NCBI GenBank assembly: GCA_051294905.1
Contig: CM119373.1
Location: 5,086,001 to 5,146,000, forward strand
DNA from: Botryllus schlosseri
Lineage: Eukaryota
DNA: 60,000 nucleotides
Reading direction: 5' to 3'
The notes under the pieces were generated by a model that was not told where the DNA came from, ran no database searches, and worked only from the letters and a program-made list of their open reading frames with translations. Positions 7,096 through 35,635 of the stretch are shown piece by piece; within the stretch, counting starts at the first letter, position 1; each line of letters starts with the position of its first letter. The translations under genes were made by a program, and so were the position numbers.

Positions 7096-7458
7096 AACCC
7101 CTGACCAAGATGGGTTCCAAACACAAGTTTGGTAAATCCATCAACAGTCTAAAAAAGAAAAAAGGCTGAAATCCTTCCAAGAGAGTGGGGAGGGGCAGAA
7201 CCAAAACCTCAGACCTGTTCGCAACAGGTGAACTGCTACCTAACCACAAGCAGAAATACGCCAAACCTACCCACTCCACCTGTTGGAGTAGTTGGTTGTG
7301 GTAAGGTAAAAATTTATATTAATTTAAAAACCAGTTGCCTTAGTTTAAAATAATATGTAATAAAAATCCTGACCTGGAAGCGACCCTACATCTAAGAGAG
7401 GGTCGAACAAAGGCAGCGAATACGGCGAGCCGCAAAAAAAAAAAAAAAAAAAAAAAAA

Positions 7459-7618
7459 GGTATCGCACGGGTGAGTACTACTAACGGCTTTTTCAGATAC
7501 GTGGAACGAACCGGAGCCGCTTGAGCATTACCTAGTAACCGTAACTATTAGTATAGTCTAGCGTTTAAATAGGCTACTCTCTCTGTCTCTGAGTCTGAGT
7601 CTCTGAGCTACAATAGCC
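7459..7618 (+). mobile_element. Orphan retrotransposon-type 5' head ('D') lacking its SL exon
   Basis: GGT..., micro-intron GTGAGT-ACTACTAAC-...TTTCAG, GAGCCGC, ACCGTAA and TAGGCTAC in the same order as in the B1, B2 and C heads. Confidence 0.7.
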
Positions 7619-7630
7619 TACCTCTATGGA

Positions 7631-7644
7631 GCTTGGCGGTACAC

Positions 7645-7680
<36 letters not shown>

Positions 7681-30130: not shown

Positions 30131-31987
30131 AGGTCAACTATATCGACCAAAACAACTTTTGCTCATTTTGTAGAGTTTTTTATGCTGATTCCAATAATAT
30201 ACATCCTAACTTCTAAAATTACGTATTTTCTGAGATATCGCAGTGCAAACTGCCGACCTCTCAGAAACGGCTGTAAAATCAGCAACCGTGTCGATGACGC
30301 ACTACCATGAGGATTTTGCCGATACATGGAACACTGAATGGGATGTCTAAGTCAATCGTTGGTTGTTGTCTTCGCCTAAATTACCTGATGCTGCGTTGTT
30401 TTGATTCGTCATGCCCGACTGGACTATTCAATCTTCATTTTATGGTTCTTTAGGTTCTTATAATTTGCGAAGGCTTGTGTAGAGGAAGTACAGAAGCCAA
30501 CGTGCAAGGCAAGCAGTTCTGTTTCCATCTCATGTATTGATCCCATGGAAACGCCACCTCGGTAAGGACGAGGACGGCTAGCTGCCCCGCACTTCAATGA
30601 AAACAGATGCAGAGAGCAGAAGAAATGCAAGTCCGGAAAGTCCCTTTTGCAGCCCAATATAAGGAAGGCTGCTGTGCTCACCGATGTACAGTGTTTTTCA
30701 ATGAGCTGCTGTAGTGAGAGTAGGAGCACTTTGCCATCACACTTTCTCTACCGCAAAGGATGCTGTACAATGGTGAAGAACGACTTCTGGAGGCACATCT
30801 GTCATTCAATCGTTGACCACGAGGTGTGGCCAGAACCCCCTCCCCTTGCTGCTGCACGTGCAAGATTGCAACGAGATCAAGCCATACATCACGATGATGC
30901 CGTGTCAGGGTAGGTAATTATTATTTCAACCTCACTTTTCCCAACAAATTCAGAGTTTTGTAACTACGAACAACCACCCCTGATCTAGGCTTACATAAAA
31001 AACTCTTGTCTTGCTGCTGGCTTTCACATAGACATTGAACCGGTGTTACAATAAAAATAAAGTAAATGGAGTGTTAGTGAGTGTATATGATTGAATTTCT
31101 GCTTTAAATTATTATTTCAGAAACATTGACAATCCTGGCCTAGGGCATCATGCTGGAGCATAACATCAAAAAAAAGAAAATTCGCCGAAGAATCCTGGGA
31201 AATTCACTTATTCACAGAGATTTATTGAGATAATTTCCTTCTATATTATAATTTTTGCGATTCTGTATTTATTAGAACCCAATAAAAGCTTTCGACTTTT
31301 CTGTATGTATTAGAATCCAGTAAAAGCTTTTGAGTAAAGCCATTTTATTACATACAAAGATAAAGTGGAAGTAGCAGTCTGTGAGAACTGATCAGCGATG
31401 TCGGAATACTTCGGATCCAGTTGATGCGGCGAAGCTGAATTCCTTTGAGTGAATCTAGTCTGGTCTAGCGTCTCTGAAAAGTCAATATGTATTAGTTATA
31501 TGCATCGTTCTTCAAGCTTAGATCGTCAGCATACCGCACAATCTTACATGCATGCGTTACAATAATTGTTTTAGACGCGCAAGTCCAATCATTTGACCAA
31601 ACGGTACGGTACTTTCGTCGTCCAGTAATGCCTGATTGTATATACCATTCAATGGCTTACCTATATACGAGAATTCCTCAATAGCGTCGGAATCAGATTT
31701 ACTAGACACCGTGTAGCTATCAGTTCAGTCCACAGCTTCAGAGGTTGACATTATCCCACTTCAATACATACACCACAGCCGCAGCATCAGAAATCCTCAT
31801 GGTAGTACGTCATCGACATGCTTCATTGATTTTACTACCGTTTTCGTCTGTGGTGGCATTTTGCGACTTTCGCTGCTCGATATCTCAGAAAATACGTAAT
31901 TTTAGAAAGTATGGTGTATATTTTTGGAATCAGCATGTAAAACTCTACTGAATGAGCCAAAGTTGTTTCGGTCGATATAGTTGACCT
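30131..31987. mobile_element. Non-autonomous Kolobok-like DNA transposon
   Basis: TTAA TSD (30127-30130, 31988-31991), purine (AGG) termini and ~110-bp imperfect TIRs beginning AGGTCAACTATATCGACC. Removal restores WNILKKEL. Confidence 0.82.
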
Positions 31988-32524
31988 TTAAAAAAGAACT
32001 GACGGAGGTTATCAATAATGCTTATATGTTTGGTGGATTATGTAAATCATGGACAACGGGTATTACAACATTACTATACAAAAAAGGAGAACCAAAGAAA
32101 TTAAAAAACTGGCGGCCAATAACTCTCTTGAACACAGACTATAAAAATACTAACCGGAATCATATCGAACAGGCTAAAACCCATCTTACCAAACCTTATC
32201 CACCACACACAAAAATGTGCTATAAAAGAACGGCAGATAACCGACGTCCTAAGAAATACCCATGCGGTAATAGAATATGCCCAAGAAAAACAAAGAACTC
32301 CTGGTCATGAACTTGGACCAGGAAAAGGCATTTGATAGGATTCATCACGAATACCTCTTCAAAATCTTGGGGGTATATCAACTACCCAACAACCTGACAC
32401 GCATAATACGAGAAATCTATGAAAACGCCTCCAGCAAGATCCAAGTCAATGGAGCACTCACAAACCATATAAAAATAGAACGTGGAATCAGACAGGGGTG
32501 TCCGCTGAGTATGTCGCTCTACGC

Positions 32525-33745
32525 CAGAGGTCTCAAACTCAAATGTGCTCGCGGGCCAGTTTTCCAGTTTTGACGACGCCGCGGGCCGCAGCATTTATAG
32601 GGGTATTCTATGTCTTTCCAAGTAGACCTTATTTGGCGGGAATGAATTGTCCTGTGGAAAGTAAGCCGATCAAGCAGACTGCCAGTAAACACACATCGTC
32701 AAAATCACAAATGTGATTTACTCTTGTTTCAATTTAGGCCTGGCACGAAAAGAATCATCACATCTTTAACTTTTTGAATATAATTGATGTTGTATACTTG
32801 ATATATAATTATAAGATATAGACATCATGAGCAGACAAATGTATGATGCCATTATAAAAGCTATCGGGTTATAATTTTGCAGTTTCTATGAATATTTTTA
32901 ATTTAACAGATTGATAATAGACTGATCTGAAATTAAAACATTTTTAGGTTGGGCGTTGTAATTCCGATGGGATATAGGATTCGGGTATACTTCTGATAAA
33001 TAGGCTATTAATCTCATGGCCAAATATCTTCAAATATAGGAGCAGAAAAAAATATAAATATAATATAAATATGTTAATAACTGTGTCCTAGTGATTGAAA
33101 TGTCCGAACGCCGAACGGCCCATTGTTGTTACATCGTTGGAGCGTACCACTTGGGTACTCGGTACCTTTAAGTGGCCTTAATAACATGGTTTAGCGACCA
33201 AAGATGTAACTAACAGATTGCCAATGGTTGCCATAAATACTTGCTTAGTTAGCGAAATACCAAGCTGCGACCTTCTGATCTATTACCATTCCCCTGATAC
33301 GCGATTATAGTTGGTTGCGTCCATGCTTCTAATAAATTCACGGCATTCCGAGTAACTCCCAGTCCACTCGAGTCTCATTTTCATTTTGCCATCGAGTTAG
33401 CCCGAGTGTGAGTAATTCTAAGAAAGGTCGCGTCTAAGTCCAACTCACAAATTTAAGTCACGAATCGTCTAAGGGTCAGGTTTTGTCATCATGAATTGGA
33501 AACGTGGCGAAATAGTGAATCTTCCACTGCATGGTAGCGTTTACAATTGATGTGATAGTCAAGTTTGATCAATAGTTTCAGGCTTTCGTGGCAATTTAAG
33601 AGGGAATTTTCACTTTATAACCTGAAAAGATATATGTGACACTGATATATTGCAAATTATTAAAAATCTAAAATGTCATCGCGGGCCGCACAAAATGCTC
33701 TGGCGGGCCGCATGCGGCCCGCGGGCCGCGTGTTTGAGACCTCTG
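32525..33745. mobile_element. Non-autonomous hAT (Charlie-like) element
   Basis: TIR CAGAGGTCTCAAAC/GTTTGAGACCTCTG, 8-bp TSD CTCTACGC, GCGGGCCG subterminal repeats. Confidence 0.92.
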
Positions 33746-35635
33746 CTCTACGCCATCAGCAGTGACCCCCTGTCAAGAAAAATCGAAAACGACAAAAAAA
33801 ATAAAGCCATTTAACATCGGCAAAACGAAAATCAAAATTCAGCAATACGCTGACGATATAACCTGTTACCTAACCTGCGAAAAGGACGTAAAACAAATAT
33901 TAGGTGAATTTGGCAAATTCGAACGCGCAACGGGACAAAGACTAAACACCGGAAAAACCGAGATACTACATATTAACCCGATAAAACATCGAACTCGAAT
34001 CCCGGAACTGGAAAGCAAAAAAAAGATATGATAAAAATACTCGGACAATATTACGGTAAAAATCAAAATAAAGAAACCTGGAAAGAGAGAATAGCCAAAT
34101 TAAAACGTATTTTTTACGCCTACCGGAACAGGAATTTGACATGGACAGGGAAACTTACCATCCTAAACTCCCTCGCGTCAAGTCAGATATTGTACAATGC
34201 CAGAGTAATAACACCGCTCAAAGAGCACATCAAAAACATCGAAAAACTATATTTCGAATTTCTGTGGCATCCACAGAAAATGGAATGTATCGCGAGGAAA
34301 ACGCTCATTGCAAACAAAGAAAAAGGCGGGATCGGATTCCCTGATGTAATAGGGAAAATCCAAACCTGCCAAGCAGAAAAAATTGCAATTCTAAAAAACC
34401 TTGATACCCCAACAGAAATATGGCACAAACATGCCATCTATGAACTTGGTACCAAACTTAAAGGGATTAACAGTAAATTATATAACAACTCAGAAGCACA
34501 TAAATACCCGACACCCAAAAATTGGATACTGGAACTGACGGAAGAAGAATGGGGGGAAATAACACACAAAAAATTGTACACAAAAATCAAAAAAACTGAG
34601 TGAAAATAACCCAACTATTAGATTAGAAAACGGTACCGAGGCAAAATGGTCAAAAATCTGGAAAACGAAATACAAGGGCCAAACCGTCATCACGAAGAAT
34701 TGGAAATAAACTACAGAATTGCAATAGAAGGGTACATATTTGGTGAAAAAAAAGCGAAATAGAAATATGACGCACACCAAATATAACAAACCGCTGCTAT
34801 TAAACTGTAAATTTTGCGGAGCAAAAAATGATAATGCAAAACACCTGATCACGGAATGTACATATATAAAAAAGATCATAAAAAATATAGAATGTGCACT
34901 ACAAATCACGCTCTCCAATGACGCGAATTTGTATAACAATGAAAAAAATAAAATCAACTGGATATTAACATCCATCCTAAAGAGGAAAATCATAATAAAC
35001 ACAAAAATATCGCTCGATATTAATAACGAAAGAGTAGACCGAGAAGACATCGAAAGGAAAACTCTCAAAATAATGAAAAAGAGATTAGAGAGAATAACAC
35101 CGAACCCAGAAACACTCGAATGGGTGGAAAAAATAGCACTATATTTGGAAGAGACACAATAAAATCAGCAGGAAATCTCAAGACAGAAAAAAAAATGAGA
35201 ATAAAATACAGGGTCCCAGACGCAAGCTGGGTCAACCCAACGAAAAATAAAAGGAAAAAAGTGACGAAAAACTCTTCAGGAGAGAGGGGAGGGGCCGTCA
35301 AAGAACCTCCCAACCACTCGCACCCAGCGGTTGGCTTTTGATCCACAAACTAAAATATGAAAATAATAAAAAATCGTTTACATTGGAGTAGTTGGTTGTA
35401 CTAAGGTATACACCATCTAGAAACAAGAATACGCAAATAAGAGACAAAACAAGAAGAAACCGTTAAAAATTACGTTCATAAACTGTTTAAAAATCCCTGA
35501 GTTAGAAAAAAAAAAAAAAACTATAAAAATAAACAAAATGTGTAATAAAGAAAGACCCCGGGCGCGAGGCAGCCCTATTTTGAGAGAGGGCTGCCAAACG
35601 CCGGCGGATACGGGGAGCCGTAAAAAAAAAAAAAA

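Follow-up and report, generated by a model that had tools for sequence, protein, structure and literature searches.

A stretch of 60,000 nucleotides (nt) from the ascidian Botryllus schlosseri (GenBank assembly GCA_051294905.1, contig CM119373.1, positions 5,086,001 to 5,146,000 of the forward strand; the whole stretch is called the window below) harbours long interspersed nuclear elements (LINEs) that carry the spliced leader (SL) of their host at or near their 5′ ends and a related sequence, referred to as the box, in the 3′ untranslated region (UTR). The question raised by this locus is how the trans-spliced leader of the host came to stand in the DNA of retrotransposons, and whether the host splicing pathway had a part in it. 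The occurrence of spliced and unspliced heads among related copies suggests that the elements pass through, and partly exploit, the leader-splicing machinery of the host. The mechanism is partly resolved.

Leader sequences in the window

As revealed by self-comparison, open reading frames (ORFs), Pfam domains and junction sequences, the locus is a nested head-to-tail array and not five simple tandem copies. The array comprises six LINE copies of the L1/Tx1 group, belonging to two lineages, A and B; the named copies are E1 to E5 (Table 1). A scan of the window with the SL 24-mer, allowing up to three mismatches, gave seven matches, all on the + strand, and none in 100 shuffled sequences. The 24-mer is the published leader of stolidobranch ascidians, entered as "Chordata 1" in Table 1 of PMC3795323, and the supplement of that source (files 1 and 2) lists the same leader for Botryllus, Halocynthia, Polyandrocarpa and their relatives. 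An earlier model-made interpretation of the letters alone (the sequence-only reading) had placed SL-type sequences at three heads and in five 3′UTRs and had named the stolidobranch leader, and both statements are borne out.

GT directly follows all three head SLs and four of the five 3′UTR copies, the exception being the box at 21261, where AT follows. The sequence-only reading had also described three intact 5′ ends, beginning with the SL and marked by element-specific substitutions, and this description has to be amended. In none of the three copies is the SL the first inserted base, and both ORFs are open in E2 only. E3 and E5 are decayed, so the two changes in the SL of each fit ordinary decay after insertion.

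Spliced and unspliced heads

Two forms of the head were found. In the unspliced form, the SL is followed in order by GT, 0–14 variable nt, GTRAGTA, TAACGGCT, a pyrimidine tract and CAG; the stretch with these splice signals is called the module below. In E2, an exact SL is joined directly to the exon (SL/GTGATCCAGAGCC, the slash marking the junction). In the closest relatives of E2, at the genomic loci L121, L034 and L053, the SL is followed by 24–41 nt and then by TTTTCAG/GTGATCCAGAGCC. The same junction recurs in a second subfamily, when L059 and L060 are compared with L037 and E3. Since the SL of E2 is joined exactly at a conserved acceptor, made up of branch site, pyrimidine tract and CAG, that its unspliced relatives have kept, E2 appears to be a retro-copy of a spliced RNA. 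It shares with SL-relic retrocopies the SL at the 5′ end and its joining at the acceptor of the source, a comparison that leaves trans or cis unspecified. Because the joint is at CAG, the GT behind the SL of E2 represents the first two bases of the exon. The sequence-only reading had taken the GT after the SL as a sign that the leader is element-encoded and not a reverse-transcribed one; the start of the E2 exon behind CAG makes this a false dichotomy.

Thirty genomic loci matched by the E2 5′UTR were classified by their heads. The SL stands before the module in nine of them and is joined at or beyond the CAG acceptor in five. In seven further loci the module is present and the SL is replaced by the poly(A) of another element, two have the module without an SL, and the remaining seven are truncated further. 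The head module is kept in 22 heads across lineages A and B, despite less than 40% protein identity between these lineages.

An intron of 24–41 nt is very short for the spliceosome. On this ground, trans-splicing of the host SL onto the acceptor is favoured; cis-splicing of an encoded leader would yield the same product.

Inheritance of the leader and its genomic copies

One element, the ends of which are represented by the loci L049 and L072, is flanked by ATGTCATATA and has SL nt 1 as its first inserted base. SL-including copies in a target resembling a miniature inverted-repeat transposable element (MITE) are flanked by TGAGCATCG. As it lies inside target-site duplications, the SL is part of the inserted unit and is inherited with the element. 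In this respect the sequence-only reading, which had the SL encoded in element DNA, was right, and the check on other family copies that it had proposed came out in its favour: both motifs recur in further copies in the genome, and the 3′ box is conserved far above its flanks.

The genome contains 393 copies of the 24-mer with at most one mismatch, while the reversed pattern, used as a control, gave 0. These copies stand at the head of numerous repeat families that are unrelated to one another. Fifty exact-SL loci were sampled. They form about 19 sequence clusters, mostly with long downstream ORFs. GT follows the SL in 24 of the 50, and the junction bases vary within clusters; in the other 26, the SL ends exactly at the exon boundary and a dinucleotide other than GT comes next. 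Such an exact ending points to a splicing product, unlike random template jumps. The uniformity of the 5′ leaders, as against the drifting 3′ box, is read as renewal from the host SL; the alternative is selection on an encoded leader.

The first 30 exact-SL loci, taken with 1.5-kb flanks, have no similarity to A or B elements at their leader; a B-type head module is present in L118, one of 20 exact-SL loci with shorter flanks. A tblastn search of 30 SL-headed loci with the E2 and E1 proteins gave no match, and Pfam gave no clear match for 13 ORFs downstream of SL-headed loci. One extended SL-headed locus has a CCHC knuckle only and no PDB relative.

No conventional SL RNA gene was recognised among the 50 sampled exact-SL loci, a tandem SL pair on C4 and the matches to SL + GT-N-GCAAC. 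The last pattern had been considered as the start of a multicopy SL RNA gene and was rejected: it has nine matches in the genome, eight of which run into the LINE module, the ninth being a 5′-truncated head after the poly(A) of another element. The C4 pair was rejected as an SL gene array, since it proved to be another repeat head with a duplicated leader end.

A large group of SL-headed repeats (L005, L009–L012, L014, L016–L019 and L104–L112) has an Sm-site-like YTTTGG or YTCTGG in the first ~80 nt after the SL. The same group has a GGACC-N4-6-GGTC stem-loop about 50 nt behind the leader, and many of its members have a conserved upstream block of ~190 nt. The repeats of this group have the appearance of SL RNA genes joined to a longer element. 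In L006, L014 and L091, the last 11 nt of the leader are repeated behind it, and in L103 and L108 short 5′ leader pieces are stacked upstream of the full leader. These repeated ends and stacked pieces are signs of stuttering or of repeated 5′-end addition.

Sequences upstream of the leaders

The SL of E2 is preceded by two pieces of small nuclear RNA (snRNA), a U6 copy without its 3′ end and the beginning of the host U1 (Table 1). The Rfam scan of the window at the gathering threshold reported the U6 copy only. Base 7764 is common to the U1 piece and SL nt 1, which makes a 1-nt overlap. The unit of U6, U1 piece, SL and E2 (7630–13646) lies between two copies of TACCTCTATGG, inside one 11-bp duplication. 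E2 thus has the features of snRNA/LINE chimeric retrocopies, namely same-orientation snRNA pieces on the 5′ side and a single duplication. The U6 copy is either part of the chimeric E2 insertion or a separate retro-copy, in which case there were two successive insertions.

E3 and E5 have 37 extra nt 5′ of the SL. The 37-nt leader of E3 was considered as a recurrent SL-gene promoter and rejected, as the pattern is single in the genome and belongs to E3 itself. The genome has 42 U1 genes in two tandem clusters (C6:6.91–6.95 Mb and C2:28.75–28.90 Mb), and the C2 cluster is interspersed with B-lineage LINE copies. In L121, an unspliced SL head stands 56 nt behind a U1 gene, which makes read-through from a U1 promoter conceivable.

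Heads as insertion targets

An unbiased list from a search for A-type 3′ ends contained 12 matches, eight of them A-like tails. Five of the eight adjoin a LINE head at SL/GT, one is located just upstream of a head, and two are elsewhere. A nested A2 copy in L058 has a 10-bp flanking duplication starting at GGT. At two places (L079/L083 and L084) B tails adjoin TAGCA(A)CG, the joint lying one or two bases deeper in the head, and they adjoin TGAGCATCG in the MITE-like repeat in three clear and three similar cases among 30 loci. From these target sites, the bases behind the leader resemble the preferred cleavage site of the family. Recurrent insertion sites are the MITE-like TGAGCATCG target, the LINE head at SL/GT and, twice, TACCTCTATGG; about half of the 30 B-type 3′ junctions lie elsewhere. 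Heads are also struck by a third family, the tails of which end in CCCCT ahead of the poly(A) (L041, L051, L052 and L099). All SL targets seen are heads of LINEs, and none is a genuine SL RNA gene. The suggestion of the sequence-only reading that the elements provide their own landing sites fits the hot spot at the heads, and heads acting as landing sites explain the array.

A palindromic MITE-like repeat has been struck at one position (directly after …TTTGGTGAGCATCG) by at least three different SL-headed families. The loci with this target are L034, L047, L048, L050, L053, L059, L060, L024, L063, L066 and L082. The situation resembles the insertion of Tx1 elements into a DNA transposon.

The SL-like box of the 3′UTR

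The box is present in 16 of the 30 loci with B-type 3′ ends; the remaining 14 are truncated copies or other families that have only the last ~100 bp of the tail in common. It is also found in both A copies and is more diverged in the A2 lineage. Among 12 representatives (66 pairs), the mean pairwise identity of the 23-nt box is 0.85; the flanks next to it reach 0.44 and 0.51, and those further away 0.36 and 0.34. The contrast is somewhat inflated in favour of the box, since the copies were located by the box itself, and this has to be held against the interpretation preferred below. The G10/C20 variant distinguished by the sequence-only reading is not fixed: in relatives, position 10 is T, and positions 19–20 read AA, GG or GC.

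In E2, the box and the next 20 nt fold into a strong hairpin, of which the box is the 5′ arm (z −4.98, 0 of 200 shuffles), and z ranges from −0.9 to −5.8 for hairpins around the box across copies. E2-like copies have the pairing partner downstream of the box; in A, A2 and E3-like copies it lies upstream (ACTCCA). Since the partner differs by lineage, the primary sequence seems to be the constrained part. AAG/GT is retained after the box in the A and B lineages and is not retained in A2 (L058 and L044). Our best guess is that the box is a recognition tag for the proteins of the element itself, perhaps tied to the recognition of a similar DNA target; a role as a variant splice donor is possible. 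A SINE-like (short interspersed nuclear element) derivative, formed from a fresh SL on the 3′ box, was considered and rejected, because canonical SL + GTAYAY is single in the genome.

In the E3-like subfamily (window 21261–21340; L073 and L074), the box and its flank are tandemly duplicated with a unit of ~57 nt; the second box copy of E3, at ~21313, is more diverged. The last 70–100 nt of the B 3′UTR, which consist of two stems and GGATACGGAGAGCCGT before the tail, are common to LINE families without a box (L081, L088, L090 and others of L079–L090). A common recognition tail for the reverse transcriptase (RT) may serve several LINE families.

Classification of the elements

The elements are non-LTR retrotransposons (LTR, long terminal repeat) of the L1 group with an apurinic/apyrimidinic-type endonuclease (APE). 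ORF2 contains the APE domain PF03372 (6.1e-13, residues 11–247) and the RT domain PF00078 (1.7e-33, residues 532–779), and its best relative of solved structure is human L1 ORF2p (8.2e-61 over residues 4–886). These domains and this match agree with the APE type that the sequence-only reading had assigned. ORF1 has a CCHC knuckle. Further traits of the L1 group are the A-rich tails, the duplications TACCTCTATGG, ATGTCATATA and TGAGCATCG, and the truncation of 7 of 30 copies beyond the head. The endonuclease is not restriction-like, which sets the elements apart from CRE, SLACS, CZAR and NeSL. A zf-RVT match is weak (17.8 bits, below the cut-off) and, together with the CCHC-bearing ORF1, is compatible with the Tx1 clade and not diagnostic of it. 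Protein homologue searches returned unnamed proteins. A and B are two old lineages: their ORF2 proteins are 37% identical over 559 amino acids and their ORF1 proteins 39% over 210 amino acids.

Anatomy of the array

The coordinates of the array are given in Table 1. The 5′UTR of E1 starts upstream of the window, at L084:1791, immediately after the poly(A) of a short B copy that is probably only ~300 bp long. The 5′UTR of E4 begins at G/GT, the exact expected end of an SL, with the poly(A) of E1 directly adjoining. It is split into two parts, and E1 is colinear across the junction (95 identical positions in 144 columns). The 11-bp TACCTCTATGG has three exact copies in the window, each at a junction. 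As E2 and E3 both stand behind copies of it, two different B elements appear to have struck the same site of an A element. E5 adjoins the tail of E4 directly.

Table 1. Positions in the window of the LINE copies, their leaders, boxes and junction sequences
Feature	Position	Strand	Details
E1, lineage A LINE	1–7458	+	ORF1 1107–2375; ORF2 fragments to 7095; poly(A) 7434–7458
SL-like 3′UTR box of E1 (A-lineage variant, GG at positions 19–20)	7283–7307	+	23 nt + GT; 4 mismatches to the 24-mer
E4 (lineage A), first part of 5′UTR	7459–7629	+	GTGAGTA-TACTAACGGCT-TTTTCAG module inside; TACCTCTATGG at its end
TACCTCTATGG copy 1, duplicated target of E2 and E3	7619–7629	+	
U6 snRNA copy without 3′ end, then 18 A	7630–7736	+	RF00026, 92.6 bits, E 1.5e-22, match 7628–7730
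Host U1 snRNA nt 1–26	7738–7763	+	Identical to the U1 gene start in L121; 1 base off the C6 U1 variant
SL, head of E2	7764–7787	+	0 mismatches
E2, lineage B LINE	7788–13646	+	5′UTR; ORF1 8386–9708 (CCHC); ORF2 9705–13166 (APE + RT); A-rich tail 13630–13646
SL-like 3′UTR box of E2, with GT	13390–13415	+	2 mismatches
TACCTCTATGG copy 2, between E2 and E3	13647–13657	+	
E3, decayed lineage B LINE	13658–21528	+	ORF1 14240–15502; ORF2 pieces 17991–20886; poly(A) 21520–21528
E3 head	13658–13748	+	37-nt leader 13658–13694; SL 13695–13718; unspliced module 13719–13748
SL, head of E3	13695–13718	+	2 mismatches
SL-like 3′UTR box of E3	21261–21284	+	2 mismatches; next bases AT
TACCTCTATGG copy 3, after E3	21529–21539	+	E4 5′UTR resumes at 21540
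E4 remainder (lineage A)	21540–26657	+	ORF1-like region 21556–22912; ORF2 pieces 23606–26310; poly(A) 26650–26657
SL-like 3′UTR box of E4	26497–26520	+	3 mismatches
E5, decayed lineage B LINE	26658–35636	+	37-nt leader 26658–26694; SL; unspliced head from 26719; poly(A) 35622–35636
SL, head of E5	26695–26718	+	2 mismatches
SL-like 3′UTR box of E5	35382–35405	+	2 mismatches

The 5′UTR of E1 is interrupted by a MITE-like element, which extends from L084:2190 to window position ~918, has inverted ends of the CAGGGGTTCTC type and is flanked by a duplication of CTCTAGAC. Ends like those of this insert adjoin other copies (L037 and L079). In the right half of the window, other repeat families (38386–39085, 43466–43854, 46812–47067, 49416–49807 and 57983–59041) recur at L007, L024, L030 and L120; they are unrelated to the SL elements.

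Origin of the leader

The explanation we put forward, to which we give about an even chance of being correct, is that the reverse-transcribed LINE RNA carries the host SL as its 5′ part, received through the host SL splicing pathway, that the head is a target, and that the box is an old derivative. LINE transcripts would enter the SL splicing pathway of the host, which would most probably be the source of the leader. The copies with an intact module (E3, E5 and, without an SL, E4), taken together with the copy that has its SL at CAG (E2), suggest that spliced SL-headed LINE mRNAs are made and retro-copied. Once in DNA, the leader is inherited with the element. The same RT may also attach 5′ parts of further spliceosomal RNAs to what it copies, U1 and U6 on E2 being examples. 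The head, with TTAAG/GT and an AGCAAC-like stretch, would resemble a preferred cleavage site and draw insertions, giving rise to arrays. The 3′UTR box would be an old element-encoded derivative of the SL, no longer renewed and under selection inside RNA hairpins.

Several observations weigh against this explanation. The 41-nt gap of E2 is flanked by AGGT repeats, and a slippage deletion is possible for that single copy. TAACGG is also a Myb-type binding motif, so that a promoter element is another possible reading of the module. One and the same 5′-truncated SL is found in L059 and L060, in two different target copies, which looks like plain vertical inheritance. In the propagating form an unused acceptor lies behind the SL, an order that trans-splicing at this acceptor is unable to produce; an earlier acceptor, the re-use of the terminal AG of a relic SL or some other route is needed. 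Expression, the 5′ ends of the RNAs and the choice of trans over cis have all been deduced from genomic DNA. Furthermore, GT follows the SL in every A and B head with a preserved junction, and the bases after this GT can pair with SL nt 13–18, as in stem-loop I of real SL RNA. The constant GT and the pairing fit either a captured 5′ part of SL RNA or a genuine donor mimic. A donor mimic was the proposal of the sequence-only reading. Spelled out, SL + GT would be an encoded imitation of an SL-RNA donor, with transcription beginning at SL nt 1 under an internal promoter; the head would be either spliced in cis to the nearby CAG or a selfish SL gene that gives its leader to other RNAs in trans, with the box as a second, variant donor. 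This proposal agrees with the placement of AAG/GT in the hairpin loop as in SL RNAs, with the inheritance of the head with subfamily-specific variants, with the failure to see a conventional SL RNA gene in the 50 sampled exact-SL loci, and with the AAG/GTA kept in the 3′ box of A and B. We nevertheless regard it as rather unlikely. The cis intron would have only 24–41 nt, its donor standing no more than 28 nt from the branch site, and an Sm-site-like element was not recognised in A or B heads. The A2 box (L058 and L044) is without the donor-like AAG/GT, and one box of the window is followed by AT. Across the genome, only 24 of 50 SL-headed loci have GT behind the SL, and the 393 near-exact copies of the host SL, as against the drifting box, point to renewal from the host.

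The leader might also have come from template jumping of the RT into the 5′ part of SL RNA, with or without a few intron bases, the resulting chimeras having become master copies. The presence of U1 nt 1–26 and an A-tailed U6 directly upstream of the E2 SL, with the 1-nt overlap, would be well explained in this way, as would the 37-nt extensions of E3 and E5, the partial SL pieces stacked before full SLs in L103 and L108, and the variation of junction bases inside families, where an A or a G is added or a base is substituted. PMC4494074 reports recurrent U1- and U2-derived 5′ additions and 31–42 nt extensions on Tx1-mobilised SINEU. Jumps should end at scattered positions, however, whereas 26 of 50 loci end exactly at the exon boundary, and the SL of E2 is joined exactly at the CAG acceptor; besides, SL + GT-N-GCAAC occurs only nine times in the genome, at least eight of these being LINE heads, and there is no multicopy SL RNA template with that intron start. 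This origin is accordingly judged distinctly unlikely. Another thought is that the heads themselves may be working SL RNA genes or donors, which supply part of the host leader or parasitise trans-splicing with the box as a variant donor. It is left standing by the lack of a conventional SL gene in the 50 loci, by the group with an Sm-like site and stem-loop, and by the AAG/GT stem-loop of A and B, and it seems quite improbable. Least of all do we expect that the SL of the head is derived from the target, by the logic of CRE, SLACS and NeSL, with elements that home to SL sequences and master copies lodged inside SL RNA genes, whose promoter would drive their transcription too, so that every RNA would begin with the SL and a few intron bases; this we consider very improbable. 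Five of eight A-like tails do stand at SL/GT, the 10-bp duplication around the nested A2 copy of L058 starts from GGT, and a U1 gene stands 56 nt before one unspliced B head. Targeting of snRNA genes and transposons is a known trait of Tx1-clade elements (PMC4494074, PMC4640811). Each occupied SL target seen is, however, the head of another LINE and not an SL RNA gene, inserts bounded by duplications at unrelated sites include the SL, and B elements are mostly found elsewhere (TGAGCATCG target, TACCTCTATGG and assorted sites).

Comparison with known systems

The closest system known is Tx1-Mar/SINEU of crocodilians, for which Kojima 2015 (PMC4494074) describes recurrent U1- and U2-derived 5′ additions, 5′ extensions of 31–42 nt, and a DNA-transposon target with copies stacked at it. 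The two systems have in common the APE type, a DNA-transposon-like target, 5′ additions from spliceosomal RNAs, extensions of 30–40 nt and stacked copies, and in both the transcription of such heads is an open question. Unlike the crocodilian additions described there, the ascidian head is the trans-spliced leader of the host, a chordate with SL trans-splicing, and usually ends exactly at an exon boundary. The ascidian LINEs differ also in having a splice-signal module, both spliced and unspliced copies, and the SL-like box of the 3′UTR.

Buzdin reportedly described in 2002 mammalian U6/L1 chimeric retrocopies with a same-orientation snRNA upstream of a LINE, an arrangement that fits template switching of the RT. 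Like these chimeras, E2 has upstream U6 and U1 pieces; unlike them, it has a U6 copy that is 3′-truncated and A-tailed, a U1 fragment in between, and a full-length LINE.

The elements CRE, SLACS, CZAR and NeSL-1 have a restriction-like endonuclease, insert in genuine SL RNA genes and produce an RNA starting with SL bases. The ascidian elements, like these, are non-LTR elements tied to SL sequences and home to SL-containing targets. In contrast to them, they are of the APE type, their SL targets, as far as seen, belong to the heads of other LINEs, and the majority of B copies are located at other sites. The SL-gene-specific LINEs CRE1/2, SLACS, CZAR and NeSL-1 are named in PMC4640811.

Relics of the SL on retro-copies have been reported from other hosts. 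'Recycled' mRNAs or retrogenes of dinoflagellates carry them (PMC5585692), and retrotransposons of Schistosoma mansoni are suspected to bear the SL (PMC5832876). The host SL at the 5′ end of retro-copies, which is taken there as the outcome of reverse transcription of trans-spliced RNA, corresponds to the acceptor junction of E2. The ascidian case differs in that the SL is passed on in whole LINE families along with a downstream acceptor module that is not used, the relic is full-length and neither truncated nor stacked, and the host is a chordate. In the literature covered, which did not extend to Repbase and subscription journals, there is no description from tunicates of chordate families of the L1/Tx1 group that inherit the full leader of their host. 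The same literature holds no description from tunicates of a splice module with both copy forms, of homing to heads or of a 3′ SL-like box.

Significance

Any new copy of a LINE must have a 5′ end that is defined and can be translated, and it must have a way of being transcribed again. The host SL would give the element a host-like mRNA with an exact 5′ end, whichever promoter made the precursor. The system is tractable, because two lineages less than 40% identical share the leader, the module and the box, and because spliced and unspliced retro-copies stand side by side, so that the processing step is readable from DNA. It unites SL relics, snRNA-derived heads on Tx1-type elements and array-building, site-specific homing. 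With 393 genomic copies of the SL, retrotransposon heads can mislead both the SL-based annotation of gene starts in ascidians and the search for SL RNA genes.

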